A stretch of DNA of 64,000 bases from a virus: positions 4,256 through 68,255 of the IMG/VR virus record IMGVR_UViG_3300024999_000091, one strand, 5' to 3'. The position numbers and the translations under genes were made by a program. The first letter of the stretch is position 1. Every line of letters begins with the position of its first letter. Positions 4,151-64,000 of the stretch are shown here, one piece after another. Below the pieces are notes generated by a model. That model was given only the letters and a program-made list of their open reading frames with translations, ran no database searches and had not been told where the DNA came from.

Positions 4151-4159
4151 GTTTTCGCG

Positions 4160-5805: not shown

Positions 5806-5847
5806 GTGTCATCAACGGAAAAATCATCAACAAGGAGAACTACCACA

Positions 5848-7005: not shown

Positions 7006-7158
7006 TAATCATACAGTTCATTGCGCGTAGCGGCAACGTGGCGCAGTCGTGAGGAGCCGTTGGTAGGATAGACTGAGCGGGATACCAACTGCGCGTGATG
7101 AATTTTCCATATTATAACTGAGTATCACTTTTTAAAATTTCCGAAAATGGAGCGGGAA

Positions 7159-8825: not shown

Positions 8826-9424
8826 AACGCTACCCCTCTCTCGGTAACCCCTGGCAGTCCCAGGCTATTATCATTGTATGCCGTCGGTCCGAGTCGGCGG
8901 TACCGATTCCAGGACCGCCAGCCGAACAAACGAAGAGCGCGGTAAGCCCGGCCGGCGTCTACTGTGGCCCCGTGTTTCTCGATGGTGATGTGGCGAAGGA
9001 GTTGGTCACCAAACTTCTGGCCGCGGCCGATGAAGACTGGCACCAGGTCGCCAAACAGGTAAGGGAATTGCTTAACGAGACGCTCGGAGGCAATGTTGAA
9101 GATCAAGCCTGGCTTCCGCCTGGCGAGCATGTAGCCGTATTGATACCACTGATCGTGCGGCACGGACCCTTCAAGGAGAGTGCCGGTCGGCTCGATGATC
9201 GGCCAGCACGGACGCGGGACACTGGCCCCGTCGATGACGAATCCATCAGGGTGGACCAGTTCTAAACCGTCACCGAACTCTGGATCCTCGTCGAGAGTGA
9301 TTACGTACTCCCCGTAGAGCCGGTACCGTGGCGGAAATCGCCACCTGTAAATTATCTGCTGGAAATAGTTGAGGCCGTGCAGGTTATAAGGTAGCCGTTC
9401 GAGTCGCGGTGTCGGGATGATCAA
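8822..9424 (-). CDS. DUF1353-like protein
   Basis: PDGFVIDGASVPR, HDQWY, YRALRLFG. Confidence 0.8.
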   Translation of the reverse strand: MIIPTPRLERLPYNLHGLNYFQQIIYRWRFPPRYRLYGEYVITLDEDPEFGDGLELVHPDGFVIDGASVPRPCWPIIEPTGTLLEGSVPHDQWYQYGYMLARRKPGLIFNIASERLVKQFPYLFGDLVPVFIGRGQKFGDQLLRHITIEKHGATVDAGRAYRALRLFGWRSWNRYRRLGPTAYNDNSLGLPGVTERGVAF

Positions 9425-9924
9425 GGTATTACCCCTTTCTGCATCGGCAAATATTTTTTGATCGTGTCGAAAAGCAGCTGATAATCACAGTCCAGATCGT
9501 ACCGCTTGCATATCAGCGTCCAGGCCGCGCAGTAATCCGGGACATGATAGAGGTTCGGCGGCAACCACTCATCCGGCCCCTTGGCGCCCTTCGATCTGTT
9601 CACGGCGGCCAGGACCGGCAAAAGGTTATCTTGATCGTTGGCGAAGGCCTCGCGGCGATCAGCTGGCCAATTCTCGGCGCCGTGATCCCATGCCCACTTG
9701 AGAGGGATGATATGGTCTATGTCGGCCTTGCCCGGATCCGTGATCATTTCCCCGGTGTACGGGCAGGCTATGCCGATGTTTATTGCGATTTTGATCGCTT
9801 CTTCCCGGGTGTTCTCGCCATCACGGTCGGCATCTATCCAATGATGAAAACTCTCGCGGGAATAGTCGGCGGCGGCTGCCGGCAGGGAGAAGAAGAGGAT
9901 CAGTGAAAAAATGATATTTTTCAT
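9421..9924 (-). CDS. Secreted HNH (DUF1524-like) nuclease
   Basis: Signal peptide; HWIDADRDG.NTR, DIDHIIPL, FAND..NL, NRSKG.KGPDEWLP. Confidence 0.85.
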   Translation of the reverse strand: MKNIIFSLILFFSLPAAAADYSRESFHHWIDADRDGENTREEAIKIAINIGIACPYTGEMITDPGKADIDHIIPLKWAWDHGAENWPADRREAFANDQDNLLPVLAAVNRSKGAKGPDEWLPPNLYHVPDYCAAWTLICKRYDLDCDYQLLFDTIKKYLPMQKGVIP

Positions 9925-46000: not shown

Positions 46001-46696
46001 CTATTCATCCTCATCCTGTTGATTCAAAGGGTCTTCTGGTCCGCCTTCGACGTATGCTCCATAGCCAGGATCATGAATAATGACCGTCGGCAGGGCGTCA
46101 TCCTCGCTTCTCTTGTCGTCCAAATTGAATGCCAATCGTTCCAACATCTGCCGCTTATGGCTGGCTCCCGTCAACTGGTTGTAGGCCATACACAGGTCGG
46201 TATCGCAGATGTCAAAATCTTGGGAGATGATCTCCCCTTTATATGAAAAAACTTTGGTAATTTTTCCAGTGAGCAGGCGGGCGGCGAGAGTCTCTTCGAT
46301 CAGTCTGAGTTTCGATAGGTCTTTCCGATGGGAGCGCAAAACGGCAACGCGAGTCTCAGCGGCGAGTTCGATATCTCGCTGTTCAAGCTCATCGTCTGGA
46401 GGTTGACACTCGGTTTCTCTTATGTTGTCAGTTGTCAACTTATCGGCTGGCGGTGTCAACATTCCAACCAATTCACGAGCAGACCGAGCATCTTCCTTGA
46501 TCAGTTTGGCTTGCGCAACCCTTCGTACTTCCGATGAATTATCACGTGCCCACTCGCCTTCTTTAATCTTCTTGTAGAGAGATTGGCGGCTACACCCATG
46601 ACGACGACACAACTCCGCGTCTGTAAACTGAGCAGTGGAATACTCACGTTTGATTGCTGGCCAATCAAATCTATCCCTCCCACTCGGTTTTCCCAT
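46001..46696 (-). CDS. Terminase small subunit
   Basis: N-terminal HTH (DWPAIKREY...ELCRRHGCS...W); immediately upstream of TerL. Confidence 0.75.
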   Translation of the reverse strand: MGKPSGRDRFDWPAIKREYSTAQFTDAELCRRHGCSRQSLYKKIKEGEWARDNSSEVRRVAQAKLIKEDARSARELVGMLTPPADKLTTDNIRETECQPPDDELEQRDIELAAETRVAVLRSHRKDLSKLRLIEETLAARLLTGKITKVFSYKGEIISQDFDICDTDLCMAYNQLTGASHKRQMLERLAFNLDDKRSEDDALPTVIIHDPGYGAYVEGGPEDPLNQQDEDE

Positions 46697-49985: not shown

Positions 49986-50200
49986 AGACCAGAAAAGCAA
50001 AGCGCCTCCTGTCGAAATGGGAGCAATCCCACCTGACGGCGGTCGGTATCAACCGGGTTGAAGACTTCGACGAGCGGCTGACCGCGATGGCAACAGATCA
50101 GGCGAAGGCCGAGCGAAGAAGCGAGAATGATGTCCCGGTTGTGGTGGTTGGGTTTTGCCCTACCTGTTGGGGGATTGGCAAGAAGTTGAAAATGATATAG
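49979..50200 (+). CDS. Small hypothetical protein
   Basis: AAGGAG RBS; CPTC. Confidence 0.55.
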   Translation: MLKTRKAKRLLSKWEQSHLTAVGINRVEDFDERLTAMATDQAKAERRSENDVPVVVVGFCPTCWGIGKKLKMI

Positions 50201-50219
50201 AAGAATATCAACCAAGGAA

Positions 50220-50489
50220 ATGAATATGAAAATAACGCACATTACACGGAAAATATCCGGAAATAATTATGACAATATATCGGTCACCGCTGAATTGGCG
50301 GATGGCGATGATCCAGTAAGATGCGCTGTTGACCTTGATGAAAAAGCATATGAAATGCTTCGTAAAATCAAAGAAAACGAAGAGTCAAGGAACAAAAAGG
50401 AAGAGTCAGTCAGAGAGTTGAAAAACAGGATAGAACAACTGCTTTGGCGTATCAATAACGGTGAAGACGTAGGCTATATCCCTTTCTAA
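50220..50489 (+). CDS. Hypothetical protein
   Basis: AAGGA RBS; ends in IPF, like an SSB-type tail. Confidence 0.65.
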   Translation: MNMKITHITRKISGNNYDNISVTAELADGDDPVRCAVDLDEKAYEMLRKIKENEESRNKKEESVRELKNRIEQLLWRINNGEDVGYIPF

Positions 50490-50507
50490 TCCAACTGGAA
50501 CTTCTAC

Positions 50508-50547
50508 AAAAGGCCCCGCTGGTTTCCCGGCAGGGCCTTTCTATTTT
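50508..50547. terminator. Bidirectional terminator
   Basis: AAAGGCCC...GGGCCTTT hairpin between convergent operons. Confidence 0.7.
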
Positions 50548-50717
50548 CAATCCACCAGATATTCTTCAGTCACGAACGCGCACACCACTTCGACAAGTTC
50601 CGCCCTCATCGAATCCACGATCACGGTAGCATGCGGGTGCATGTTGTCGTTCAGCCATTTAATGAGCGGCCGCACGGTTTTCTCGAATTCTTTTCTTTGA
50701 TCTTCGGTGAGTGTCAT
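50547..50717 (-). CDS. Small protein (56 aa), paralog of 55255..55425
   Basis: RPLIKWLNDNMHPHAT shared; GGAGG RBS. Confidence 0.7.
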   Translation of the reverse strand: MTLTEDQRKEFEKTVRPLIKWLNDNMHPHATVIVDSMRAELVEVVCAFVTEEYLVD

Positions 50718-51127
50718 CTTCCATCCTCCGGCAGTACTGGTAATGGTTTTCCGAGAAGCTCAACAACCTTGGCGTAAATCTTCTTGATCGTCGGCCAACT
50801 CACCGGCACCTTCTCGGTAATCGTCTCATCCGCATTCGGAAAAGTCTCACATAAATTACACTCACCGCAGTCGCAGTAATCAGGATTTCGCACCTCGATA
50901 CTCTCGTAGAACTCGCCCATGAGCGCACCTTTGGCACCGTTTTCAGCGGTGAGGCGTAGCGGCATGGCGATCATGTCGGCGGCCGGTGCGCGGCTGTCCC
51001 AGGCGGCTTGCCATGAAATTTTCATGGCTTCGATGTTTGCGTGATCGAATATGTATTCAGATAGGGGGTATTCCCCGGCAAACCACTCTCCAAACGCCTT
51101 CCGGCACTCACTCAATTCTTCATCCAT
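50714..51127 (-). CDS. Hypothetical protein with Cys cluster
   Basis: LTAENGAKGALMGEF...CDCGECNLC...VSWPTIK; start probably at MDEEL. Confidence 0.65.
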   Translation of the reverse strand: MDEELSECRKAFGEWFAGEYPLSEYIFDHANIEAMKISWQAAWDSRAPAADMIAMPLRLTAENGAKGALMGEFYESIEVRNPDYCDCGECNLCETFPNADETITEKVPVSWPTIKKIYAKVVELLGKPLPVLPEDGR

Positions 51128-51185
51128 CACACACCCCTTGTACTCTGAAAATTTTTCCCGAAATGACCAATCACCACACGATTTT

Positions 51186-51374
51186 TTACTCTGCCGCCCC
51201 CCCCATCGATAGGAATTTACCGTCGATATCGAATTCAAACTCGGTGAAGAAACCAGGATATCCTTCAACCTTATCCATTCCTTCATCGCAGATCACCGAT
51301 TTCCCTTCTTCCCTAAAGCCAACTCCGAATTCGCTCAACAATTTTAGCAACTTCTCCTTATCCGTCATGTCCAT
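51186..51374 (-). CDS. Small hypothetical protein
   Basis: AAGG RBS; operon packing. Confidence 0.55.
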   Translation of the reverse strand: MDMTDKEKLLKLLSEFGVGFREEGKSVICDEGMDKVEGYPGFFTEFEFDIDGKFLSMGGAAE

Positions 51375-51564
51375 TTACCTTGTTTTGAAAGGGAGAAACT
51401 ATCTTGATTTCGGTTAAATACAGTTTCCCATTATACTGATAACCAACAACAATTCCACAATACCAACTGAAGCGAAACTTTTTGCCATACTCTTTCGCTT
51501 CAGCGATCACGCAATCAGCGGAGACACAATTTTCAAGCATCTCCTCGGAAAAGAAAGTTTTCAC
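51358..51564 (-). CDS. Small hypothetical protein
   Basis: GGAGGTGAG RBS before GTG. Confidence 0.55.
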   Translation of the reverse strand: MKTFFSEEMLENCVSADCVIAEAKEYGKKFRFSWYCGIVVGYQYNGKLYLTEIKIVSPFQNKVNGHDG

Positions 51565-51573
51565 CTCACCTCC

Positions 51574-52074
51574 TCACGGTCCTTCAAACCGATATACCCC
51601 ACATTCACCTGTCCGGTCACCAGGCTCTAAACGACGGATCGTGCAGAGCCACATAATAGCCGCCACGCACCCGTCATGAATTTTTTCCAGATGAAAACCG
51701 ATTCCCCGCTCTTGATCAAAAGCGCTCGCCAATCCATGATATGCACTCGCGATATACCCGAGCGCCTCCATGGTCTTCCTGGTCTTCTCGCTTCCATCCG
51801 GTTTCCAGGAGACAACCTGCATCTCACTCACAGCCCACTTCCGGCACATCGCCGCGAGCTGCACCAGTTCGATATGGAGGTCGGTATTGCGCTCTGGGGC
51901 ATTTTCCGTGCTTTTGTGGAAGGCCTCAACCACCTCGTAAAACTCCTCGGTGAGCGCGCCGAATGCTTCCCACTTGCTGAGGAAGTGGCCATTGATACGG
52001 ATTGCCCGGGCCAGTTCGGCTTCCACTTCGGCGAGGATTTCTTCCGTGGTGGCTGACAGGTTAATTTTGACCAT
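51574..52074 (-). CDS. MazG-like/all-alpha NTP pyrophosphatase-like protein
   Basis: EAFGALTEEFYEV...ELVQLAAM. Confidence 0.5.
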   Translation of the reverse strand: MVKINLSATTEEILAEVEAELARAIRINGHFLSKWEAFGALTEEFYEVVEAFHKSTENAPERNTDLHIELVQLAAMCRKWAVSEMQVVSWKPDGSEKTRKTMEALGYIASAYHGLASAFDQERGIGFHLEKIHDGCVAAIMWLCTIRRLEPGDRTGECGVYRFEGP

Positions 52075-52861
52075 TCCGCCCCCTGTGCTTCTCGACAACC
52101 GCGTTGATACTGTCCTTCCAGCGGATAATCGGATCGTCATTGTACCTTTCGTAAAGAGCCATTATCTGCCCATCGTTTTGCAACTCCTCAAGCCACTCAA
52201 CTTCTTTCCGGTATTTTCCCGGCACCCGCAACCTGGCCTTGTTCATCTTGCCAATCCATATCGTATCGGTGACAAATTTCCTGATCAACTCGACCAATTT
52301 TACCGTTCCCTCGAAACCTTGGAGCATTGGCTCAATCGAAACTGAGGTGTGATATCCGCCCAAGAATGCACTCACGAGACACGTGTGCCTTTCATTTGGC
52401 TCGGTCGCTCCAGGTTCCCAGAAGAGAGAAATGGAAGGATCAGTGGTTCCCATAGTGAACCGGAAAAGTATTTGGCTCTGGCGCCCCATGAAAGCATCGA
52501 TCATTTTCTCCACACATTCCAGTCGAGGCTTTGAAACGATCAGGAGTTTATTACCGCTTTCAAGAATCAAATTTGCCACTCGAATATAAGCGTCCACATT
52601 GAAAGGCGTGATATCGTGGCTACTGGGGAACATGATAACGCCATCCCTGGCGGGGTAATGCTTGATATCTGCCCGCTTCGTTAACTCCTCCCGCGCCCAA
52701 TCTTCCCTTTTCCTTTGGCCAAACCTGTTGGCATTGCTGGCAGCATAACAATAGAGGCAGTTGTTCGCGCATCCGCGGCATATGTTTTCATTCACCTCGG
52801 CCCATTCGGCCGTACCTGTGCCAACTCTCTTTTTATCGAAATCGTTTCCCATCAAACCCAC
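52061..52861 (-). CDS. Radical SAM protein
   Basis: GCANNCLYCYA (CxxxCxxC), SSHD, SVSIEP. Confidence 0.85.
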   Translation of the reverse strand: MGLMGNDFDKKRVGTGTAEWAEVNENICRGCANNCLYCYAASNANRFGQRKREDWAREELTKRADIKHYPARDGVIMFPSSHDITPFNVDAYIRVANLILESGNKLLIVSKPRLECVEKMIDAFMGRQSQILFRFTMGTTDPSISLFWEPGATEPNERHTCLVSAFLGGYHTSVSIEPMLQGFEGTVKLVELIRKFVTDTIWIGKMNKARLRVPGKYRKEVEWLEELQNDGQIMALYERYNDDPIIRWKDSINAVVEKHRGRNGQN

Positions 52862-53325
52862 CCCCTCGCCTGATAACCTTTCGCGTAAGATTCAGCCTGC
52901 ATGCGACCAAGTTCAGCAGGCGTCAATTTCTTTTTGGCCTTCTTCTTTTCATCCGGTTTTTCCACCTCGACCTTTGGCGGCTCAACTGGGGGAGCGGCGA
53001 ACTGCTTTTGAGCCTCTTCGCTCTTCGTCTTATTCATCGATCGCAAGCGACTGGCGATCCTGCCGGTCGTTTCCGCCACCCGCTGCTTTTTCCTGGCCTT
53101 CACCGGCGCACCCTCGCAAGTGCAATATTTCTTACTCTTCCGGCGCAACTGATCGACCCGCAACACCCGCTCGTGGCCGCACTTGTGCCGGCAGAGCCAT
53201 GTGGTTGGCCGGTTATTGCCGACGGCGACCACAGACAGCACTTCCCAATCACCAAACTTGCTGCCGGAATAGTCCTTGAAATTCGGACCGTCTACTCCTT
53301 TTCCCATTACGTATTGATCAGCCAT
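52852..53325 (-). CDS. Basic protein with N-terminus like AP2/HNH-associated domains
   Basis: G.KFGDWEVL...WLCRHKCG; no catalytic HNH seen. Confidence 0.5.
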   Translation of the reverse strand: MADQYVMGKGVDGPNFKDYSGSKFGDWEVLSVVAVGNNRPTTWLCRHKCGHERVLRVDQLRRKSKKYCTCEGAPVKARKKQRVAETTGRIASRLRSMNKTKSEEAQKQFAAPPVEPPKVEVEKPDEKKKAKKKLTPAELGRMQAESYAKGYQARGWV

Positions 53326-53539
53326 TTGATTTTTCCTTTACCGTTGCGGCATCCGCATCCTTTCTGCGCTGCACAGCTTTTAACACTTCTGCCAAATCAT
53401 CAGTGGTCAAAAGAAAGTCGGCATTATCGTTCTCAGGCGATCGAACGAGAAGCGTGATTTTCTTACCTGGCTTAAAGCATCTCTCAATCTGTCCCAATTT
53501 TTCTTCACAGTAATCTGCTACATCATCCAGTTTGCTCAT
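53318..53539 (-). CDS. Hypothetical protein
   Basis: Coupled ORF. Confidence 0.6.
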   Translation of the reverse strand: MSKLDDVADYCEEKLGQIERCFKPGKKITLLVRSPENDNADFLLTTDDLAEVLKAVQRRKDADAATVKEKSNG

Positions 53540-53967
53540 TTGCCTTCCTCCAGAATCTTTTCGATATCGTTAAGATATTCCAGTAATATTGTTTCCCTTT
53601 CATTGCATTCCCATTCGTAACAAAGAAGAATATCCTCTCTCCAGAATTTCACAGCCGCCCGTATCGCCTCAATCTGACGCTCTACCTGCGTTTTAGCCTG
53701 CGATAGCTCGCAGTTTTCACATTCTACGAGTCGCCGTGCGGCGGAGGTATTCTGTATGATCTTGGTGGATTTATCTTGGTACTCCCAAAAATTTCCGCGA
53801 CCGTCCGTTACTCGATAAAATACACCTGGATTCATGCGGCCTATTCGGCGTTTTTCCTCGACGAATATCCCTTCCTTTAGCGGGTTATTCTCGCTGGCGT
53901 AAATGCCAATAACTTTGTCGCCAAATTTTGGCCGGCGTGTTTTTCCGTTCTGGTTGTCGCTCATCAT
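53536..53967 (-). CDS. Hypothetical protein
   Basis: Coupled ORF. Confidence 0.6.
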   Translation of the reverse strand: MMSDNQNGKTRRPKFGDKVIGIYASENNPLKEGIFVEEKRRIGRMNPGVFYRVTDGRGNFWEYQDKSTKIIQNTSAARRLVECENCELSQAKTQVERQIEAIRAAVKFWREDILLCYEWECNERETILLEYLNDIEKILEEGK

Positions 53968-54431
53968 TTCTTTCTCCCATGTTTTTCAGAAAAAGACATC
54001 CACCCCTTCGGCATCCTTGGGGAATAAACCTCACCACAAGGCTTTATCCCTTTCCACGCCGGATCACAGAACAACCGATAGTGCCACACCTCAAGTTGTT
54101 TTCCTTTGGCGGTATGTGGCGGCTCGATCCACAGCAATCGAACATCGTCGCCAAAAAACGCTTTTGCCAACACCTCGGCCCGGCGAGCAAGGTATCCATC
54201 CTCGAAAGAAATCGACAAATGGTAGCATTGTTCGTAGTCAGGATTTTTCCACCACCCACAAGAATGATATCCAGCATCCCGGGTGAAGATCACCTTGGCT
54301 CGCTGCGGCACGAAGAAACTCCGGCAGGCAATCAGGTAATCGAAGGTGTCGTTCGTCCCATCGAAAGTACCGGTCATCGCCCTGGCTTTGGCGTTTACCA
54401 CCAAGTCTTGAAGGTTGAAATAATCAGTCAT
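53964..54431 (-). CDS. Hypothetical phage protein
   Basis: GYHSCGWWKNPDYEQCYHLSISF motif; coupled. Confidence 0.65.
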   Translation of the reverse strand: MTDYFNLQDLVVNAKARAMTGTFDGTNDTFDYLIACRSFFVPQRAKVIFTRDAGYHSCGWWKNPDYEQCYHLSISFEDGYLARRAEVLAKAFFGDDVRLLWIEPPHTAKGKQLEVWHYRLFCDPAWKGIKPCGEVYSPRMPKGWMSFSEKHGRKK

Positions 54432-54817
54432 GATCCAGCCCCCATAACTTCCGAGTTGTACCGCTCTTCATCTATCCCTCTCAACTCGACGAGAAGTTGC
54501 CCGGCCTGGTTCCCCCATGTCGAAGGGTGAAGGCCATCAGTGTTGCGGATGAGACGGGCGAGGCGGTAGAGGATATTATCCTTCTTCCCTTTCGGCGGCG
54601 TCCACCCGAGTTTGATCAACTGTTTTTTGATCTCTTCTTCCTGTGTGTTCATCACCAACATTGTGATGTTTTCTCGGATACTACCAAGGTGAGAAACGAC
54701 CTCGGAGAAGATCACCTCATCCTTCACTGACGTTTTAATCTCATAACCAGCCGAAAACCTATTTGTCGATTCTTCCTGCTCCGCCCAATACGGCTTGTAC
54801 TGTTTTTGACCACTCAC
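54428..54817 (-). CDS. Hypothetical protein
   Basis: GGAGG RBS; LIKLGWTPP. Confidence 0.6.
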   Translation of the reverse strand: MSGQKQYKPYWAEQEESTNRFSAGYEIKTSVKDEVIFSEVVSHLGSIRENITMLVMNTQEEEIKKQLIKLGWTPPKGKKDNILYRLARLIRNTDGLHPSTWGNQAGQLLVELRGIDEERYNSEVMGAGS

Positions 54818-54955
54818 TCACCCGCCTCCCGATGATTTTAAACAGCGTATACGCCTCTCTAACATCATTATGTAGCTTGCCACGTACGTTCTTGTGCGCG
54901 GCACCTTGTTCTTCCGCCTACAGTCAACCTCGCAAGCACAGAAGGCAAACCAGCC

Positions 54956-55111
54956 TTACGCTTTACCCCTGATATTGCCCTCGATGCACTCAGGGCATTT
55001 CACGAACAACCCAGTGCTCGTTTTTCCGACTTTCGTCTTATGCTTTTCGCAGTACGATTGCCGTCGGTCGAGTTTGTAGCATTTGCCGCAGAAGTCTCTT
55101 GGCTCTCTCAT
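54956..55111 (-). CDS. Small Zn-finger protein
   Basis: CGKC...C...CPEC. Confidence 0.5.
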   Translation of the reverse strand: MREPRDFCGKCYKLDRRQSYCEKHKTKVGKTSTGLFVKCPECIEGNIRGKA

Positions 55112-55147
55112 TTTTCTCTCTGGTTGATGTTCAGTTACTATCGGGCA

Positions 55148-55250
55148 TGAACGGTGACGCGGAATCGAACCGCGCAGCACCCGGCTTCCCCACTGATAGA
55201 ATCAGCGCCAGGCTTTAGGAGTGCATTCTACCTTTCTGCCACACCGTTCA
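55148..55250 (-). ncRNA. tRNA-like element (pseudo-tRNA or tRNA mimic)
   Basis: Acceptor stem TGAACGGTG/CACCGTTCA, D-arm TGGCAGAAAGGTAGAATGC, T-arm CGCGG-TTCGATT-CCGCG; non-canonical anticodon region; no CCA. Confidence 0.6.
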
Positions 55251-55254
55251 TTTT

Positions 55255-55425
55255 TCAGTCTTTCAGGTAGTCTTCTGTGGTGAAAGCGCAAACACCTTCC
55301 ACCAGTTCAGCATGTGTGGTGTCGATGATAATCGTAGCGTGAGGATGCATATTATCGTTCAGCCACTTTATTAAAGGTCGTGATAATTCTTCAAATTCTT
55401 TGCGTTTCTGCTCATTCGTTTTCAT
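55255..55425 (-). CDS. Small protein (56 aa), paralog of 50547..50717
   Basis: MKTNEQKRKEFEELSRPLIKWLNDNMHPHAT...; GGAGG RBS. Confidence 0.7.
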   Translation of the reverse strand: MKTNEQKRKEFEELSRPLIKWLNDNMHPHATIIIDTTHAELVEGVCAFTTEDYLKD

Positions 55426-55582
55426 CTTCGTATACCTCCACCAGTTCGTGATATTCTCTCAGACTCTCGGCAACTTTTTCCGCTGAGTCTTTCGACATCA
55501 GGCCAGTTTTTACCCACTCGCCAAACTCCGGGTTAACCTGCCTCCAGTATTTTACTCGATACTTTTGATTGCGATTTTTCAT
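55412..55582 (-). CDS. Small hypothetical protein (56 aa)
   Basis: AGAGG RBS just downstream of the inversion site; MKNRNQKYRVKYW... Confidence 0.6.
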   Translation of the reverse strand: MKNRNQKYRVKYWRQVNPEFGEWVKTGLMSKDSAEKVAESLREYHELVEVYEDENE

Positions 55583-55595
55583 AGGTGCCTCTGGT

Positions 55596-55608
55596 TGATT
55601 GTACTTTC
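55596..55608 (-). other. Left inversion site GAAAGTACAATCA
   Basis: 12/13 inverted match to 63874..63886; end point of the large inverted repeat. Confidence 0.8.
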
Positions 55609-55632
55609 TTAGTGGTCACAACCGGCCGCCAC

Positions 55633-56970
55633 CTAGTTTATTTCCTGAACCATATCGCCGAACCTACACCGGCCCCCATCAAAGAACATTTTCACAGTTC
55701 CAGGATCGCCGTATCTGTTTTTCCTCACGATTATTTCAGCCAATCCTCGTAACGGATTGTCTTCTGACGTGTTATACACCTCATCCCGATAGATGAAGGC
55801 AATAACCCCTGCATCTTGTTCAATCGAACCAGATTCCCGGAGATCAGACATCATTGGTTTCTTGTCCGGTCGCTCATCACATTTCCGGGAAAGCTGTGAT
55901 AGGGCAATGACCGGCACATTTAAATCTTTCGACAAAGCCTTAAGCCCTGCAGAAATTGCGGTAATCTCTTGCTCCCTGGAAACTGCCTTGGCTTTCCCGA
56001 GTTGCATATAATCGACAACCACCAGGCCAATAGATCGCCTCATGGCCTGGATTTTCGCTCTGGCTTGAATTTGGGTGATACCAAGGGCAGAGCTTTCATC
56101 AATGGTGATTGGCAGTTTCTTTAGAAAAATTGCCGCTTCCTGAACAGCCTTTAATTGATCAGGCGTCATTAAACCCCGATCCATTTTTTTGGTGTTCACG
56201 CCAGAGATGGTCGAGATGAGTTTTTGTACCAGCCTTTCAGATGCCATTTCCATTGAGAAAATCAACACCCCCGTCCCGGCCTTAGCCACATGATGGGCGA
56301 TATTCATGACAAATGTGGTTTTCCCCATCGCTGGCCGGCCGGCAATAATAGTCACCTCTGCTTTTTGTAGGCCTCCAATCAGGCTGTCGAAATCAGCAAA
56401 TCCGGTTGGAAGCCCAAACGTGTCTTTCTCACCATTATGGATTTCGGTGATGTGTTTGAGTAACGAATCAGTGATGACGGAGATATCCCTGGTATATTCG
56501 GTGTCATCGGTGGACAGATTAACGATCTCCTGGCCAAACTCATTCACCAGATCATTTACCGGGGCACCGTCATAGCATGATCCGGCGATTTCTTCGGCGA
56601 CCTTGATCAACTGCCGTGCTTTCGCCTTCTCTTTCACGATCTGGCAAAAATCTTTTATTCTTGACCTTATCGGGACCACAGCACAAAGCGATGACAGGTA
56701 TGCGAAACCTCCGACCTCCTCAAGTTTCGAAATATCCTTCAGGAAAGACGAAACGGTTACAAGGTCGACGTTGACCCTCTTGTGCCAAAGAGAATAAATT
56801 GCCTCAAAAATACTTCGGTGATGCGTCTTGTAAAAATCCTGCGGGGCAAGCTCTGCGACTACGGTTGTCACAGCGTCTGGGTAAAGCATGCATGTGCCGA
56901 TGATAGACATCTCGGCCTCTATATTCTGCGGCGGGACTCTTGTTGATTGAAGACTGTGCGGCGCGTTCAT
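55633..56970 (-). CDS. dnaB: Replicative DNA helicase
   Basis: Identical to 2776..4113. Confidence 0.97.
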   Translation of the reverse strand: MNAPHSLQSTRVPPQNIEAEMSIIGTCMLYPDAVTTVVAELAPQDFYKTHHRSIFEAIYSLWHKRVNVDLVTVSSFLKDISKLEEVGGFAYLSSLCAVVPIRSRIKDFCQIVKEKAKARQLIKVAEEIAGSCYDGAPVNDLVNEFGQEIVNLSTDDTEYTRDISVITDSLLKHITEIHNGEKDTFGLPTGFADFDSLIGGLQKAEVTIIAGRPAMGKTTFVMNIAHHVAKAGTGVLIFSMEMASERLVQKLISTISGVNTKKMDRGLMTPDQLKAVQEAAIFLKKLPITIDESSALGITQIQARAKIQAMRRSIGLVVVDYMQLGKAKAVSREQEITAISAGLKALSKDLNVPVIALSQLSRKCDERPDKKPMMSDLRESGSIEQDAGVIAFIYRDEVYNTSEDNPLRGLAEIIVRKNRYGDPGTVKMFFDGGRCRFGDMVQEIN

Positions 56971-57914
56971 AACTCAACCTTCTGGTATGATGAGCATGTT
57001 TTACGGCCCTCTTTCCAGCATGTGGTTTGGTGGTTGAGTTTGTAATTGCATCGCTCGCAGTCGAATAATTTATTGCTACCATCTTCCCCGAGTGAATCCT
57101 CCCACCTTCTCCCCGACAACCAACCTTGGGCGTACTTTGGTGTTTTCCCCTGAGCGATAATTCTCGGTCTCTCTGCTGCTTCGATTCTTGCGGCGTTTAT
57201 AATGGCGTCGACGAGATTTTGCGAATATACGTCCAACCAGGCGTCAGCTGCCTCAGCTTTTGCTTTCGGGTAAGCAAAAGCTGCCCAGAAAAGATTGAAA
57301 TTTTCAAGAACCTTTCCTTTTAATTTTCGTTTTTTCTTTGAAAGGTAAAAAGTCTCTTCTTCAACCTCTTTTACTCCACCGTCTTCGTCAGAAGCGGAAA
57401 GGTTGTTATTATTCTGTTCCTGTTCCTGTTCCTGTTCCTGTATTGGCATATGGTTTCGACATGGTTCCCTAAACCCTTCGGCAAACCCTTCGGCAAACCC
57501 TTTACCTAACCCTTCGCAACATGCTTTTATTAATAAGTAATTCTCGTTTTTCAATGGTCCGTCAGGCAACTCTGAAAACAGTTTTCCCCACATTTTTACC
57601 ACATTCGGATTTGCCGGTTTATTGTGTTTCAGAAAGTTTGGAAGAAGGATAGTAAGGGTCCTTTCGTCATATTTAAACAAACCTGCTTTTAACCCTTCGG
57701 CAAACCCTTTGCCAAACCCTTCGAGGTTCATTCGAGACTCTTCAAGGAGCGATGCTTTCCCCGCCTTAAAGCAACCGAATGGTGATGAAAACGTTGTGGT
57801 GAGGAGGTGAAGAAAAACGAGTTTTCCATAGTCGGACATATAAGGAAATTTATCATCATTCCATATCAGACAATGCACTGTCCTGTATCTTGTCGATGAT
57901 GTGCCCACAGTCAC
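56967..57914 (-). CDS. Phage replication initiator
   Basis: Identical to 1832..2779. Confidence 0.85.
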   Translation of the reverse strand: MTVGTSSTRYRTVHCLIWNDDKFPYMSDYGKLVFLHLLTTTFSSPFGCFKAGKASLLEESRMNLEGFGKGFAEGLKAGLFKYDERTLTILLPNFLKHNKPANPNVVKMWGKLFSELPDGPLKNENYLLIKACCEGLGKGFAEGFAEGFREPCRNHMPIQEQEQEQEQNNNNLSASDEDGGVKEVEEETFYLSKKKRKLKGKVLENFNLFWAAFAYPKAKAEAADAWLDVYSQNLVDAIINAARIEAAERPRIIAQGKTPKYAQGWLSGRRWEDSLGEDGSNKLFDCERCNYKLNHQTTCWKEGRKTCSSYQKVEL

Positions 57915-58070
57915 ACCCTATGATTATCAATCAGTTCTTCGTGAACATCCTGCGAGAAAGGCATTCCAGATTCAAAAATTTCTCGTTTCTCCTTGGAGTA
58001 CTCGCGCAATCTTTCTATCCAATCTTCAAAATCATCATCTATGTCATCTTTTTCTCGCATAGGTTTCACC

Positions 58071-58164
58071 AAAAAAAATGGCAAGCAGCTGGACCTATTC
58101 CACCTTCCAAGGGCACAGGTACCCAAGGTGGAATAGTTTGGCACGTCCAGCTGCTTGCCATTTT
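58071..58164 (-). ncRNA. C4/CI-like hairpin (copy)
   Basis: Mirror of 1582..1675. Confidence 0.55.
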
Positions 58165-58306
58165 AAAAAAGTTTCGATTATTCAACATGTCACCTGTAAT
58201 TCTGGTTTATCGCCCTTACTGCGCGGGTGCCATCCGCTAAGCGATGGCGTAAGAATACCATACTACATAGAACAGTCAAACTTTTTGAACAACTTAGTAC
58301 AAATTA

Positions 58307-59035
58307 TTATCCTACGTAAACTGTTTTACCGGTCGTTTCTGCAACTAATTTCTTAAACATCGCCTCATGGCTATTCGCCGACGAGAGATGAAGAAGATGA
58401 ATTTCCTTCAACCTGCTTTTATCCATCTGCCTTAGGAGGTCTACTACCCGCTGAATGCTCATGTGGCTCTTTATAATCCGCCAGCAGCGCTCTTTTTCGA
58501 CCAATCCGGACGCCACGTTCTCGGCGAGGATCTTCTCGCAAAAATTCGCCTCGATCATCAGGTGCGTAACCCCTGAGAATCGATACTTGCAATAGGCAAG
58601 ATCGGTTATAAAGAGGACCTTCTCATCACCGGACGCAATAATGAATCCAAGTGGTTCTTCAGCATCATGAACCACGTCGAACGGCAGCACGGTCCATCCG
58701 CCAACCGTGAATTGCTGCAGCGCCTGGACGTGATTCATGCGGTGACCGGTCGCTCCGATCTGTTCTGCGGCACCTTTGCTCATAAAAACATCCACTCCGG
58801 CTATCATCATATCCTTTACCGCCTTCGCATGATCGCCATGGCCGTGACTGACCAGGCACCCAGCAGATGACGACAACTGAAAACCCATCGCTTCTTTGAT
58901 CTTCGCAATACTGATTCCGGCCTCGATAACAAGTTTCGATTTCCCGTTATCGAGGAGGTAGCAGTTGCCGGATGATGATGAGGCAATTGTGGTTATTTTG
59001 ATCATGGGTTTTGGCAAATATTCAGTTATAACCAA
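58307..59035 (-). CDS. MBL-fold metallo-hydrolase
   Basis: Identical to 711..1439. Confidence 0.9.
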   Translation of the reverse strand: MVITEYLPKPMIKITTIASSSSGNCYLLDNGKSKLVIEAGISIAKIKEAMGFQLSSSAGCLVSHGHGDHAKAVKDMMIAGVDVFMSKGAAEQIGATGHRMNHVQALQQFTVGGWTVLPFDVVHDAEEPLGFIIASGDEKVLFITDLAYCKYRFSGVTHLMIEANFCEKILAENVASGLVEKERCWRIIKSHMSIQRVVDLLRQMDKSRLKEIHLLHLSSANSHEAMFKKLVAETTGKTVYVG

Positions 59036-59042
59036 TCTTTTC

Positions 59043-59267
59043 CTAACGTTGAGAATTCCATAAATCAGCTATGCGTTGTGCCACTATGCACTGCATTTCA
59101 TATGACATGTTGTAATTATAGGTCGATGTGCATAGGGCCGTGCTGGTGCCGTCTGGCAGAGTTATCCGTACTGTCGGCTGACGGCGATTATCCCTGCTCC
59201 GCTTGACGTATGCCAAGCCATTCTGGAAGTCTTTGATATTGTCAGTGGTGAACCTTATTTCAGACAT
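59043..59267 (-). CDS. Hypothetical protein
   Basis: Identical to 479..703. Confidence 0.6.
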   Translation of the reverse strand: MSEIRFTTDNIKDFQNGLAYVKRSRDNRRQPTVRITLPDGTSTALCTSTYNYNMSYEMQCIVAQRIADLWNSQR

Positions 59268-59274
59268 GTTAACC

Positions 59275-59631
59275 TCAGGCTGTGGGCTTTGGCTTACGAG
59301 CAGATTCCAGTGCTCTGGCGTGGCTTGCATGCAAAGAAGCCCTGTGTTCGTAGTGTGTTTGAAGCGTCCGCAGCGCCCTTGCGAGAGTGCCGTCTGTTGC
59401 TTCAGATAGCCATGGGGAGTTTTTACCGAAACCCGAACTTTTCACTTCATATTCGACAGTTTCATTTCTCTCTCTTCTCACGACTTGTAAAGTTGAAAGC
59501 CGATTAAACCCGCTACTCTGTATACCGGTGGCAGAAAGATATCCGCCCACGTCAGAGTACGGTCTATGCACCGTCCATTCGTACCCAGGCATTATTTTCA
59601 CGAGTTCTTTTCTAAATTCAGATGTGTTCAT
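59275..59631 (-). CDS. Hypothetical protein
   Basis: Identical to 115..471. Confidence 0.75.
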   Translation of the reverse strand: MNTSEFRKELVKIMPGYEWTVHRPYSDVGGYLSATGIQSSGFNRLSTLQVVRRERNETVEYEVKSSGFGKNSPWLSEATDGTLARALRTLQTHYEHRASLHASHARALESARKPKPTA

Positions 59632-59664
59632 TTCTGCTCCATCGCAGATATTGATATTACTTTC

Positions 59665-61632
59665 CTATTGAGCCTCGAAACGCAGTTTCTTATCCGGTTC
59701 CGACACCACCATGCAAATCACCTGACTCTTCATCTCCGGCATGGTGGTCAGTGATTCTTTCCCATCCACAAATACCATCGGATGGAAGCCGTAGTAGTCG
59801 CCAACCACATCGATGATTTCCAGCCCGGCGTGGATCCTCTTTGCATGGTTGAGAGAATTGTAGGGCACCCCGCAAACTTCGGCTTCGCAAATTGGCTCGA
59901 TACCGCCGTTGATCTGGTTCTTGAATAATCTGAATCGCACTGTGGGGAATCGGCTGTTGATTACGCCTTCCAGCATCTCGCATTTCTTTTTGATCAGGGT
60001 TTCGATAAGGAAGAGGTTGCGCTCAGTTACCTCGAATTTCGCGGCCAGGTCCTTCTCTTCTTGCTTGAGTTCGGCAATTCGCGCATCGTCTTTTTCAGCC
60101 TGATCAATTTGAGCGATTACTTTCTCGGTTTCTTCGATTGATTTTTCGAGCCTGGTTTTTTCGGCTGTCAGTTTCTCTACCAGATCGCGGCTCCCCAACT
60201 TGTTCTTTTCCAGTTCCAGATGGAGGTTGCTCATGGAAAAATCAAGGGCGGTGAGTTCCTGAGTTTTGCCGTCATCATCTTTTGCCTTTTGCAACTCGCC
60301 GGTGACTTCCTGAATGCTTTTTTTGAGGTCGGTAATGGTTTTGCCTGTGGCTTCTATCTCGACGCCATACGCCTTAATTTCGGCATCCAGTTCGGAGATC
60401 CGCTGGTTGTTCGCCTGGCCGGTTTCCACGCACTTGGTCAGTTTTGTGGACTTCTCCAAGTTGAAGGCCTTCTCTGCTGCCTCCAGTTGATCTGCCGGGA
60501 GAACCTGAGAACAATATGGGCAGTGATCTGCCGGGAGAACCTGAGAACAATATGGGCAGTGGTTTCCGGTGAAAACAAGGGCGTCGATAGCGGCATATTC
60601 ATCCCTGAGCTTCTCCGTCACCTCGACGGTGTGCTGCCGGTCGCTGGTGGCTATGCCGAGATTGGTTTTTGCCGTGCTGGTCTTCAGGTTGAGTTTTGGC
60701 TCTTCCTGTTTCAAGTTGTTGAGCCGCTCTTGGATATCCTGGACCTTCTTGTTCTTGGCCTGCAGAATGGTATTTTTCAGCTGAGTGATCTGCAATTCGA
60801 CATCGGCGATCTTCGCCTTGGTCGCCGCCACCCCGCCACCCATTTCCGCCTGGGTGAGTTCGGTGTTTTTGGCCGCCAGCAGGTTTCTTGTCGACGTGAG
60901 AAAATCAGCCTTGGCGCTCTTCTGGCCGGAATCGACATTCTCCGGCCGGCCACGCTGCACCTCGTCAATCCTCGCCGGAATGCCCTCGATCTTGGTATTG
61001 ATTTCTTTCCGCTGCGACATGATGGTCGCCTTGAAGGCTTCCGGATCTTTTCCTTGAAGGAGAGCAGGAAGAGCCGAGAGTTCGGGGAAGGCGTTGATGA
61101 CATCGGCGTCAGTGATGGTGCCGCAGATATTAAGCAGAAGAGTTATCCGCTCCTTCCAGTGCATGGTCTCGTTGAAATAGGTGCAGGATGTGAGCAGTTT
61201 GAATATCTGTTCGCCGGTAGTGATCTCGCCAACCTTAATTTTATAGGCACCTTCGGTGACCGGCGTATCGTCGATATAATATTCTGTCGTGTGCCCCGTC
61301 AATTCCTTTAGGACCGAGCCACGTTGTTTCGTCCACTTCTCAGTCATTACCCTGCAAAGGGAAGTGGTTCCCTGGGAAATTCCATTGGTGAAGACGGCTT
61401 TTACTTCACACTCAACTGGTGCGATTGGGGTCCCAACCATGCCGATCGGTTTGATTGCGAAGTTAGCTTGGTCCAGGCTGTCTTTGCCAAAATAGAGCCA
61501 TTGTACGGCATCGCAGATCGTTGATTTGCCGGTGGCATTGTCACCATAGACGGTCAAGTTCTTGCCGTCCGGGGTAAAAGTAAAATTGGTGAATCCCTTA
61601 AAATTGCGGATTTGTAATTCTATCAACTTCAT
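59665..61632 (-). CDS. SbcC/Rad50-like coiled-coil ATPase
   Basis: RNFKG, GDNATGKST, long coiled coil, CPYC hook, FVDGKES Walker B. Confidence 0.88.
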   Translation of the reverse strand: MKLIELQIRNFKGFTNFTFTPDGKNLTVYGDNATGKSTICDAVQWLYFGKDSLDQANFAIKPIGMVGTPIAPVECEVKAVFTNGISQGTTSLCRVMTEKWTKQRGSVLKELTGHTTEYYIDDTPVTEGAYKIKVGEITTGEQIFKLLTSCTYFNETMHWKERITLLLNICGTITDADVINAFPELSALPALLQGKDPEAFKATIMSQRKEINTKIEGIPARIDEVQRGRPENVDSGQKSAKADFLTSTRNLLAAKNTELTQAEMGGGVAATKAKIADVELQITQLKNTILQAKNKKVQDIQERLNNLKQEEPKLNLKTSTAKTNLGIATSDRQHTVEVTEKLRDEYAAIDALVFTGNHCPYCSQVLPADHCPYCSQVLPADQLEAAEKAFNLEKSTKLTKCVETGQANNQRISELDAEIKAYGVEIEATGKTITDLKKSIQEVTGELQKAKDDDGKTQELTALDFSMSNLHLELEKNKLGSRDLVEKLTAEKTRLEKSIEETEKVIAQIDQAEKDDARIAELKQEEKDLAAKFEVTERNLFLIETLIKKKCEMLEGVINSRFPTVRFRLFKNQINGGIEPICEAEVCGVPYNSLNHAKRIHAGLEIIDVVGDYYGFHPMVFVDGKESLTTMPEMKSQVICMVVSEPDKKLRFEAQ

Positions 61633-61722
61633 GGTAATATTCTCCTTGTGGGTTGGCTCGTCACGCCGTTGCTCCCCGGTCCATTCTCGTTTGGGCCGGG
61701 GAGTTTTTATTTCAGGTTGGCC

Positions 61723-62586
61723 TTATCGAACGTTGATAATTGGTACCTGCAACTCACCCATCGCTTCTTTGATTTTCTCCATCTCGGAGTTGAAGGCATG
61801 GTCCAGAATCTTATGCAGATTCTGCATGACAAAGAAGATTCTCAGGCTGCCGTCCTCGACCGAGAACCGGAGGCTGCACTGAATTTCGTAAGGCTTGGTG
61901 CCGTAGAACGGCGGGACGGTAATGGTGAAAGCAGACCGAAAATCCATGTCTCCCTTCTGCTGCTCACCCTTCACCTCTTCGGAATATGAAACGTTCTGTT
62001 GACCGGTGGCGGTATCGATCGAACTCTCCCATTTCGCCCGCTTCTTGACCTTGAGATTTTGTACCATGGTCAGCATCTCGCCGGCTGGTGGGTCGCTGAT
62101 ACTATCAAGGTTTTCTTCGATGAAATAGGCAATGTCCATTTGCCCCATGTGAACCCTGTTCTTCCCAAGCCATCGCTTGAATTCTTCAGTGGCGACCAGC
62201 TCGAAATTGATACTCCTGTCGCTGTGCCCAGCCTTCTCGCCATTCTCGGCGAAGTTGATGATAGCCTTAAAGGTACGCTCCTCCACGTCAGCTTTGATGA
62301 TGGTGGTGGCCGGGATTAACTCCCGTCTTACCATGAGGACGAAAGAGTCGACGTCGGCAACGGTCACGAGTCCGGTGTTCCGCATCGGCCGGCCGGTTTC
62401 CCTGACTATTCTGCGGTCTTCCATCTCCTCGTTGCGCTTGGCGAGGTCGTGAGTTGCCAACGAACATCCTTCCGGAAGGATGGCATAAAGCATCTCCTTT
62501 TCTTCATTTACTTTCGCCATAGCCAATCCATTCATAAGCAACTCCCTGATCGACTCGGCAGCCGGGATTTTCTCCATTTCTTTCAT
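61723..62586 (-). CDS. YfdQ/DUF2303-family phage protein
   Basis: GH.D...L..TEEF..W.....MGQ..IA.FIEEN...F.ITVPPF.G. Confidence 0.75.
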   Translation of the reverse strand: MKEMEKIPAAESIRELLMNGLAMAKVNEEKEMLYAILPEGCSLATHDLAKRNEEMEDRRIVRETGRPMRNTGLVTVADVDSFVLMVRRELIPATTIIKADVEERTFKAIINFAENGEKAGHSDRSINFELVATEEFKRWLGKNRVHMGQMDIAYFIEENLDSISDPPAGEMLTMVQNLKVKKRAKWESSIDTATGQQNVSYSEEVKGEQQKGDMDFRSAFTITVPPFYGTKPYEIQCSLRFSVEDGSLRIFFVMQNLHKILDHAFNSEMEKIKEAMGELQVPIINVR

Positions 62587-62630
62587 GAAAGTTCTCCTTC
62601 TTGTTGGTGTGTATTTGATTTCTTACTGGA

Positions 62631-63035
62631 TCACTGGACCCTGATTACTTCGCCTGTTTCAGGGTTCACTCTTACAGATTCTTCCTCTCCGTCAACCCTC
62701 ACGGTATCAGCCTTGGTTTTCACCTTCACGGCGTCGCCAAGGGACATCTGCCTGGGGCTCCGGCGGGTGATATTGCCATCCGAATCTGCGAACATCACCG
62801 TAGGCTGTACGGTGAATTGAGGCACCTTCTCTTTAAAGTCATCCTTGATAATTACCTGCATACCTTGTGGGGAGAATGAGAGTTTCAAGATAAGTTCTCC
62901 CTTCTTCCCGGTCTGCACACATGCCGCAGTGATGTTTTTCACTTTCTCGTAAAGTTCCGCCACGCAATCACCGTCTCGCAGCTCTCCAAGAAAAAGAATA
63001 CCGTCAGCGTATGTTGCTCTGTTTTCTTCCTTCAC
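62631..63035 (-). CDS. Hypothetical protein typically paired with DUF2303
   Basis: FLGELRDG...TGKKGELILKL...FADSDGNITRRSPRQMSL; GGAGG RBS before GTG. Confidence 0.7.
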   Translation of the reverse strand: MKEENRATYADGILFLGELRDGDCVAELYEKVKNITAACVQTGKKGELILKLSFSPQGMQVIIKDDFKEKVPQFTVQPTVMFADSDGNITRRSPRQMSLGDAVKVKTKADTVRVDGEEESVRVNPETGEVIRVQ

Positions 63036-63113
63036 TTCTGTTCCTCCATCGGTGAAATCCAACGTTTCGATACGAGCTCGACTTCCTCGGCTCTTCCTTC
63101 AACTCTTCGAGGT

Positions 63114-63473
63114 TCAGCGCCCGCCTCCTGTCGTATCGTTTTCGGCCCATCGCCTAAACTCCTCCTCCATGAACATGAGGGCAATCCCTTTCTTGACCTG
63201 CCCTGTTGAAAATCTGTACAGCCTCCACCCGTTCTGAGCGAGAAGAGCATACTTGATGCAATCACCTTCAAACCCGGTGATTGAGGTATGCCTGCCGCCA
63301 TGGTAAAGGCCGCCCTCCACCTCCAGTGCTACTTTCTGCTCCGGCCACGCGAAGTCGATCCTGTACTTTCTCCCGGGCAGGAATAAAAACTCACGCTCCG
63401 GGATGGGATGTTTGAACGCCCTGATGGCCAGATAAAAACTCTCTTCCGCTTCGGACAATTCCTTGCTCATCAC
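63114..63473 (-). CDS. PD-(D/E)XK endonuclease (DUF559/Vsr-like)
   Basis: PEREF...RKYRIDFAWP..KVALEVEGG...GRH...D..KY...GWRLYRF. Confidence 0.8.
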   Translation of the reverse strand: MMSKELSEAEESFYLAIRAFKHPIPEREFLFLPGRKYRIDFAWPEQKVALEVEGGLYHGGRHTSITGFEGDCIKYALLAQNGWRLYRFSTGQVKKGIALMFMEEEFRRWAENDTTGGGR

Positions 63474-63481
63474 CCTTCCTC

Positions 63482-63682
63482 TCAGGTGAAGAAGTAGTTC
63501 GGCTCAACCCCAAATTCCGCGCACATTTTTTCGAGCGTCGGAACCGAAGGGGTAATCGATCCGTTCTCATACCCGTTCACGACAAAATTGGTTTTCACGC
63601 CGATGCGCTTACCAAATGAGTAAACCGTGAGCTTATGCTTCTCTCTGAGTTTCCGTACTTTTTTCGGCTTAAACTTGAACAT
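63482..63682 (-). CDS. Cro-like HTH regulator
   Basis: LREKHKLT...GKRIGV.....YENG...PS...LEK; GGAGG RBS; first gene of the replication operon. Confidence 0.8.
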   Translation of the reverse strand: MFKFKPKKVRKLREKHKLTVYSFGKRIGVKTNFVVNGYENGSITPSVPTLEKMCAEFGVEPNYFFT

Positions 63683-63699
63683 TTTCCTAACCTCCAATG

Positions 63700-63825
63700 T
63701 AGTATTATGCTACTAGCGAATGAGTATTGTTTAGCACATAATTATTTACTGTGCAAGGGTATTATTGCACTAATGCGTTTTTATAGAAATAGGTTATTGA
63801 CAGTTGGTTTTTGGAATGGTAGTTT
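63700..63825. promoter_or_regulatory. Divergent promoter/operator region
   Basis: Rightward TTGACA-N17-TAGTTT (63797-63825); palindromes GTAGTATTATGCTAC, GCACA..TGTGC, GTGCAA..TTGCAC. Confidence 0.65.
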
Positions 63826-63873
63826 TGTGGGGAATAGTGGTGGGGTGGCAGGCAATAAAGCCCTGCCATATTC

Positions 63874-63886
63874 GAAAGTATAATCA
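63874..63886 (+). other. Right inversion site GAAAGTATAATCA
   Basis: Start of the direct repeat of 4138+; preceded by a TGGCAGG/CCTGCCA hairpin. Confidence 0.8.
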
Positions 63887-64000
63887 GTTTTCGCGATGGA
63901 GCAGAATTTGAAAAATTACCTATCGATGGGTTTCGGCGTAAACTCGGTTGCCCTATACCTGCTGATGCAGGATTTAGAAATGGAGTTTGAGGCGGTGTTT
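63874..64000 (+). repeat. Direct repeat of 4138..4264 (start of the next genome copy; 5' end of the PAPS-reductase-like gene)
   Basis: Identical sequence at an offset of 59,736. Confidence 0.95.

Follow-up and report, generated by a model that had tools for sequence, protein, structure and literature searches.

The window analysed here is a stretch of 64,000 nucleotides, corresponding to bases 4256–68255 of a 68,255-nt IMG/VR record from an uncultured groundwater phage. PHROG matches to a portal, a major head protein and a 4,365-aa DarB-like giant protein identify the carrier as a tailed phage. The giant ORF (window 15053–28150, minus strand) contains DarB-like antirestriction and methyltransferase-like stretches; giant virion proteins of this kind occur in Bcep22-like podophages. 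Near-identity DNA searches with positions 55000–64000 gave no match in phage and plasmid collections. From 63682 down to 55633 all genes lie on the minus strand, in the order HTH_3 Cro/CI-like gene, phrog_503, phrog_204, DUF2303, SbcC-like ATPase, 118-aa gene, 95-aa ORF, metallo-beta-lactamase (MBL)-fold hydrolase, DnaD-like initiator and DnaB. The divergent rightward operon, headed by a leader that we call the right site, comprises a PAPS reductase gene, two small genes, KTSC, a RecT-family gene (5806–7005, plus strand) and DUF2284. The small phrog_503 ORF (63114–63473, minus strand) resembles DUF559 and a restriction-endonuclease-like family in Pfam only weakly and below threshold, and an HNH/GmrSD_C-type nuclease is encoded at 9421–9924 (minus strand); neither is a known recombinase.

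In the centre of the leftward operon, the SbcC-like/AAA_23 ATPase gene (59665–61632, minus strand, 655 aa) is followed by the 118-aa gene (59275–59631, minus strand), which belongs to a viral hypothetical family and for which a protein atlas returned only viral hypothetical clusters. Next come the 95-aa ORF (59043–59330, minus strand), for which public gene callers also use a 74-aa form, and the MBL-fold hydrolase gene (58307–59005, minus strand). The MBL start was set at ATG 59005 by homologue alignment, the alignment beginning at residue 11–14 of the long ORF in 28/28 homologues (tblastn, E ≤ 1e-20). Two repeat regions lie in this operon: an exact, in-frame 36-nt tandem duplication (12 codons) at 60488–60559 within the ATPase gene, where contigs of three well-covered runs break, and 12-nt iteron-like arrays (AACCCTTCGGCA-type) with a (TTCCTG)n run at 57403–57723 within the DnaD-like initiator gene, where contigs break as well. 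The iteron region is probably the replication origin.

The feature under study, the third site, is a 33-nt untranslated leader at 59632–59664 on the minus strand and fills the whole gap between the ATPase stop codon, a TAG that abuts it, and the ATG of the 118-aa gene at 59631. It consists of the junction motif GAAAGTA (59664–59658), an AT-rich spacer, the Shine–Dalgarno sequence GGAG (59640–59637) and a 5-nt spacer before the ATG. Public annotators call the exact 118-aa protein on 6 contigs. The right site (63874–63906, plus strand, with the same sequence at 4138–4170) has the same layout ahead of the PAPS-reductase-like gene. Compared without gaps, the third and right sites are identical at 27/33 positions, in inverted orientation, namely at 1–7 (GAAAGTA), 10–13, 15, 17 and 20–33 (GCGATGGAGCAGAA). 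A sequence-only reading of this DNA had described the third site with this sequence, position, strand and degree of similarity, adjoining the ATPase stop and sharing a 7-bp core with the right site, and all of these points hold. The resemblance is real and far above chance: across both strands of the 59,736-bp genome unit defined below, the second-best ungapped match to the right-site 33-mer is 19/33, and the maximum in each of 60 Markov-1 random genomes was 19–22.

Between the left site and the other two, similarity is confined to the first 13 nt, after which the left site continues into a different Shine–Dalgarno leader. Over these 13 nt, the third site agrees with the left and right sites at 11/13 positions each, and left and right agree at 12/13. 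The 7-mer GAAAGTA alone is unremarkable, with 9 copies in the unit against 7.3 expected, whereas the 13-mer pattern GAAAGTA-NN-ATCA is found solely at the three cassette heads described below. In the 12 nt past the core, identity is 6/12 for right versus third and 5/12 for right versus left, against 7/7 in the core of all three sites; the left flanks differ, and no dyad symmetry is apparent in the sequence surrounding the cores. All three sites lie in untranslated leaders, after a stop codon or promoter region and before the next start codon. Around the Shine–Dalgarno sequence the third and right sites are identical at 14/14 positions, compared with 6/12 in the spacer. The third-site leader is of the type used by the opposite, rightward operon, whereas its neighbours in its own operon use AAGGAGA-type sites. 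RNA folding of four leaders gave no significant structure (z from −0.5 to +0.9), and an Rfam search of the leaders found no family. A simple promoter and terminator scan at the three sites called no sigma-70-type promoter and no true terminator, its sole match there being a 5-bp hairpin around the Shine–Dalgarno sequence (59633–59648). In viral and metagenome contigs other than near-identical records, scans with the leader patterns, with TAACTGA-type linkers and with the 30 nt ending in the right-site core each yielded 0 matches.

The structure of the record itself bears on how many such sites exist. IMG/VR classes the record as having inverted terminal repeats, and self-comparison showed that contig positions 1–8405 are the reverse complement of 59851–68255 with 1 mismatch; in window coordinates, 1–4150 is the reverse complement of 55596–59745. 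Self-comparison also revealed a 127-nt direct repeat at window 4138–4264 and 63874–64000, and the unit that they delimit, window 4138–63873, is 59,736 bp. A second public assembly encoding the same proteins is a contig of 59,863 nt, that is, 59,736 + 127. A linear genome with 8.4-kb terminal inverted repeats was considered and rejected because this other assembly also equals 59,736 + 127 nt, and both contig ends lie exactly 127 nt beyond the branch point. We read the genome as circular or circularly permuted, 59,736 bp in length. The assembler walked this unit once and then the 8.3-kb block 55609–63873 again in reverse, via an extra junction at window 4137|4138, where the reverse complement of 55609 onwards is joined to 63874 onwards. 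The 8.4-kb 'inverted terminal repeat' of the record arose when the assembly passed through a variant junction of the circular genome, and records with such assembly-path repeats can mislead annotation and readers. The block having been walked twice, the apparent second copy of the third site at 82–114 (plus strand), which the earlier reading had counted, is therefore the same DNA counted a second time, an artefact of the assembler's 8,405-nt inverted duplication and no separate locus. The boundary of the inverted copy at 59745, given in that reading, is a mere window edge.

Each of the three sites heads a small cassette. Cassette P (4138–4914, plus strand) consists of GAAAGTA, the leader, the PAPS-reductase-like gene and the motif TAACTGA (4908–4914). 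Cassette Q (55131–55608, minus strand) begins with the GAAAGTA of the left site (55608–55602), contains two 56-aa ORFs and ends in TAACTGA (55137–55131). Cassette T (59664–59022, minus strand) is composed of the GAAAGTA of the third site, the leader, the 118-aa gene, the 95-aa ORF with its stop, 15 nt and TAACTGA. This last motif (59022–59028, minus strand) lies 15 nt past the stop of the 95-aa ORF and before the MBL ATG at 59005; because the MBL start aligns to that ATG, the motif is intergenic. The borders of the three cassettes are alike, with GAAAGTA at the 5' end and TAACTGA 471–770 nt downstream on the same strand, and around each border P and Q are 12/13 and 11/12 identical over 12–13 nt. 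Same-strand pairs of GAAAGTA followed by TAACTGA within 1 kb occur 4 times in the genome, namely at P, Q and T and once inside the ATPase coding sequence, presumably by chance. At least 3 such pairs were found in 2/1000 Markov-1 genomes, in a test that is post hoc, since P and Q were the source of the motifs. Within cassette Q, a GGTTCGATTCC stretch in the 3' untranslated region (window ~55145–55185, minus strand) resembles a tRNA T-arm and may be a tRNA remnant; ARAGORN called no tRNA there. The exact proteins of cassette Q are present on 16 and 14 public contigs, compared with 6–7 for the 118-aa protein, DnaB and the ATPase, an excess that may reflect extra small contigs or more contexts for Q.

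The third and right sites belong to a wider set of intergenic linkers. Directly upstream of five further genes of the rightward operon, ATGGAGC forms the ribosome-binding core, and these five linkers start with TAACTGAGTA, which gives a stop in more than one frame. At window 5349–5359, 4908–4918 and 7115–7125 (plus strand), the linkers read TAACTGAGTA(G), followed by a short TGAG...CTCA inverted repeat and then the ATGGAGC box, and the linker at 5349 closes all three frames with stop codons. An alignment of ten linkers shows a single loose family, with the TAACTGA motif near the 5' end in 5/10.

Rearrangement at these borders can be followed in population data. Contigs built at k = 31 (Logan), which drop rare variants, were available from four runs of one groundwater study, three of them possibly the source of the record, and were placed on window 50000–64000. 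Depths were ~12–14 for X1 and X2, which derive from one sample, 66–97 for X3 and ~4 for X4. In X3, several contig boundaries fall at the left and right sites, with starts at 55602 and 63874 and an end at 63880, and a further contig, 777 nt long, is identical to cassette P (4138–4914). Loose ends at 55131 and 55142 in this run are the reverse complement of window 4915–4926 and 4886–4903. The TAACTGA copies at 4908–4914 (plus strand) and 55131–55137 (minus strand) form a second inverted crossover pair, for which X3 contains both reciprocal junctions as loose ends. Because these two junctions occur together with the extra junction of the contig, we infer that the X3 sample holds molecules with recombined P and Q borders, in the form of nested inversions or a P/Q swap. 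The TAACTGA pair implies inversion of the block formed by Q, the module and P; taken together with the GAAAGTA junction, it implies a P/Q swap. The contigs give no direct view of the reciprocal left/right GAAAGTA junction; the X3 contig end at 63880 fits it, and the X3 contig 55131–55631 runs through 55608, where that junction predicts a break. One X4 contig carries 23 unplaced letters beyond 63880. An 82-aa ORF runs into the right site, and its C-terminus would differ in recombinants; an exact look-up found it absent from a public protein collection.

The third site behaves differently. X1 and X2 contigs covering 50000–57443, 57418–60517 and 60532–64000+ bridge the left, third and right sites, breaking at the iterons and at the 36-nt tandem repeat, and the 3,100-nt contig 57418–60517 spans the third site in X1, X2 and X3 with 0 differences. 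Within 59632–59664, the contigs of X1, X2 and X3 show no joint, loose end or contig break, low-frequency junctions being possible as such contigs drop rare variants. In the fragmentary X4 (depth ~4), ~59340–59636 is uncovered among the contigs listed and one contig ends at 59637, with similar holes in other bins. Recombinants between motif copies are present for the left/right pair and for the TAACTGA pair, in X3 and in the contig itself, and none is seen for the third site. As X3 has joints elsewhere and none here, the visible recombination is not at the third site.

Comparison with relatives points to an older event. A search of viral contigs for related loci with the ATPase and DnaB as queries found none, and the closest relative of the ATPase has an identity of at most 47%. 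The comparison set consisted of 29 IMG/VR loci with ATPase homologues at 27–45% identity. In 28/29 loci an MBL hydrolase (33–53% identity) lies downstream of the ATPase on the same strand, and in 20/29 a RecT homologue directly follows the ATPase, with MBL next in 19 of these 20; the RecT type of the window is found in 7/20 of those loci (31–53% identity). The nearest relative (L001) has the order ATPase, PAPS_reduct, RecT, WYL_2, 106-aa gene, MBL, and annotated phages of Bacillus, Listeria and Aeribacillus carry a canonical ATPase–RecT–MBL hydrolase module. In the window, cassette T stands between ATPase and MBL instead, and the PAPS reductase and RecT are found in the divergent operon, downstream of the right-site leader. 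None of the 29 distant loci has the leader motifs, apart from one chance 13-mer match in L028. A flip of 59665–63873 by recombination between the third and right sites, as the earlier reading had envisaged, would place the ATPase directly upstream of PAPS reductase and onwards to RecT, and so recreate the succession of ATPase, PAPS reductase and RecT known from L001. Because this flip would restore the gene order of relatives, the third and right sites are probably footprints left at the two ends of an old inversion or cassette move. Its direction can be suggested from the gene order of distant relatives, with ATPase identities of 27–45%, and the event would have been of the same kind as the P/Q exchange now visible in one sample.

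Searches for an enzyme that could act at these sites were negative. Neither PF00589 (tyrosine recombinases) nor PF00239 (serine recombinases of the resolvase/invertase family) had any candidate at E ≤ 1 when the whole 68,255-nt contig was searched in six frames, and Pfam on 51 ORFs of the window found no recombinase or transposase above cut-off. The sole transposase-named match was a sub-threshold HTH_Tnp_1 in the ORF at 46001–46696. Ten large structural ORFs were scanned by PHROGs only, 4/10 of which gave no match, and an enzyme that these profiles do not recognise is possible among the scanned ORFs.

We favour the interpretation, at a probability of about 0.6, that the third site is a translation-initiation leader and at the same time the fossil border of cassette shuffling by short-homology recombination. 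On this view, the 33 nt are the untranslated leader of the 118-aa gene, made up of junction motif, AT-rich spacer and Shine–Dalgarno sequence, and they are a copy, since diverged, of the leader preceding the PAPS-reductase gene, the first of the divergent RecT operon. The two leaders belong to the family of intergenic linkers that delimits small cassettes in the two early operons of the phage. The duplicated leader would then record a past cassette move or an inversion, by which PAPS reductase and RecT were parted from the ATPase, and the same event may have brought cassette T between ATPase and MBL. Such linkers may be exchanged via short homology with the aid of the RecT and SbcC-like ATPase of the phage, without a dedicated site-specific recombinase; RecT would be a candidate catalyst of the observed crossovers, whose 7–13 nt of identity fall short of the homologies studied for RecT-type recombination. 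At present, the third site most likely acts just as the translation start of the 118-aa gene, and it is a possible substrate for further rearrangement, none having been observed so far.

The sequence-only reading had proposed a nested, shufflon-like system, with shared leader or ribosome-binding-site ancestry as the fallback. The fallback fits best, the third site being a diverged ribosome-binding leader. The nested system survives in part: related sites, common cassette borders, nested junctions in one sample and the L001-like gene order that the predicted flip would give speak for it, and it is weakened by the lack of a recombinase gene, by the position of the sites outside coding sequence and by the absence of a junction or break at the third site in the X1, X2 and X3 contigs. 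The third site is related to the others and probably marks a past breakpoint; its action as a shufflon-like switch is not demonstrated.

Another explanation of the similarity is selection. Both leaders could bind one regulator, such as a translational repressor, a processing nuclease or a transcription factor, at the 13-mer or at the GCGATGGAGCAGAA run, resulting in co-regulation of the PAPS-reductase and 118-aa genes. The uneven conservation, complete around the Shine–Dalgarno sequence and only 6/12 in the spacer, would be expected on this basis, as would the confinement of GAAAGTA-NN-ATCA to three cassette heads and the use of a leader of the opposite operon's type instead of the AAGGAGA type. 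Against a shared regulator stand the insignificant folding scores, the lack of an Rfam family and the lack of any sigma-70-type promoter or terminator called at the sites. We regard this explanation as rather unlikely; it is compatible with the interpretation of the site as leader and fossil border.

A live multi-site system of inversion or cassette shuffling is improbable on the present evidence. An unrecognised phage or host enzyme would cross over within the GAAAGTA core, with TAACTGA at the 3' borders, and would flip 59665–63873 or exchange T with P or Q. Several features are those of an active partner: the third site has the same core and matches both other sites at 11/13 positions, cassette T carries both border motifs, both orientations would give sensible operons, X3 contains junctions at the other sites, and the layout of variable left flank, 7-bp core and partly kept right arm recalls the sfx sites (PMC11852207). 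These features are outweighed by the unbroken X1, X2 and X3 contigs across the third site with no joint listed there, by the absence of tyrosine or serine recombinases, including among the 51 scanned ORFs, by right arms that agree at only 5–6/12 positions and by the lack of dyad symmetry around the core. Moreover, the crossovers fall in two 7-mers of different sequence, as is more readily expected from microhomology than from the core of one enzyme. Improbable to the same degree is a cassette-sorting system that has several sites and no recombinase gene, with the third site as a live partner. Its borders, GAAAGTA-NN-ATCA at the 5' end and TAACTGA at the 3' end, would be recognised by an enzyme of the host or by some protein of the phage, and the three cassettes P, Q and T, together with the intervening blocks for recombination and replication, would be inverted or swapped between the two divergent early operons; if true, it would rewire which promoter drives which genes.

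The possibility that the resemblance of the sites arose by chance or as a by-product of assembly is practically negligible. In its favour, the contig does have an assembler-made inverted duplication and the 7-mer alone occurs at chance frequency, but 27/33 identities, where none of 60 random genomes exceeded 22, refute chance. Moreover, the two sites are both part of the single-copy 59,736-bp unit, which is found again in the 59,863-nt contig and in independent k = 31 contigs.

If the third site is indeed a leader and a fossil border, modular shuffling at short intergenic linkers would have been caught within one natural population, with cassette borders beside the replication/recombination module exchanged in one of the samples but not in a second one. 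At the third site a fossil of this process would be preserved, the displacement of RecT from its usual slot. The cassette-border system and the within-population rearrangements are of greater interest than the third site itself.

Among known systems, the serine invertase systems (Hin/Gin/Cin/Pin) find no counterpart here, the PF00239 six-frame search having given 0 candidates. R64-type shufflons (Rci, sfx; PMC11852207) share with this locus at least three sites with a variable left flank, a common 7-bp core and a partly common right arm, some sites being inverted so that nested inversions are conceivable. The differences are that neither Rci nor another tyrosine recombinase is present here, that the 12-bp right arm, fully conserved in sfx (PMC11852207), agrees here at 5–6/12 positions, and that sfx sites lie inside a gene with switched C-terminal segments, whereas the sites of the window lie in untranslated leaders and the third of them has no junction in the contigs.

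Relaxed homologous recombination offers a second comparison. Phage RecT/Rad52-like recombinases recombine short, diverged sequences and thereby generate mosaic phages (De Paepe et al. 2014, PMC3945230). The phage encodes RecT and an SbcC-like ATPase/MBL module and its exchanges occur at short imperfect repeats; the substrates studied in PMC3945230 are hundreds of bp long, with longest perfect runs of 49–298 bp, in contrast to 7–14 nt here. Of the canonical ATPase–RecT–MBL module, the locus has the ATPase and the MBL hydrolase, with order and strand preserved, but the RecT slot is taken by the 118-aa/95-aa cassette headed by the third site, and RecT itself lies in the divergent operon.

In their workings, the cassette borders come closest to the PeSL 'mobile regulatory cassettes' described for T4-type phages by Arbiol et al. 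2010 (PMC2839356), a subject on which Comeau et al. 2014 (PMC4122927) reportedly wrote as well. As in PeSLs (PMC2839356), small genes of mostly unknown function are bordered by repeated copies of short conserved intergenic motifs, represented here by the ten aligned linkers and by GAAAGTA and TAACTGA flanking P, Q and T. Recombination between motif copies leads to insertions, replacements and shuffling that distinguish close genomes, and it proceeds without a dedicated recombinase, in PeSLs (PMC2839356) and probably in the present locus too. Three differences are evident. A PeSL is defined by a strong sigma-70 promoter and a terminator stem-loop (PMC2839356), whereas the elements here consist of a stop-rich junction and a Shine–Dalgarno leader, with no promoter or terminator called at the three sites and fold z-scores near 0. 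The carrier here is an unrelated phage of ~60 kb with a giant DarB-like protein, and the crossovers fall in 7-nt identities, the inverted copies giving rise to inversions or cassette swaps across the central module. If the favoured interpretation is true, the PeSL idea would extend beyond T4-type phages, to motifs of the leader type instead of the promoter/terminator type.
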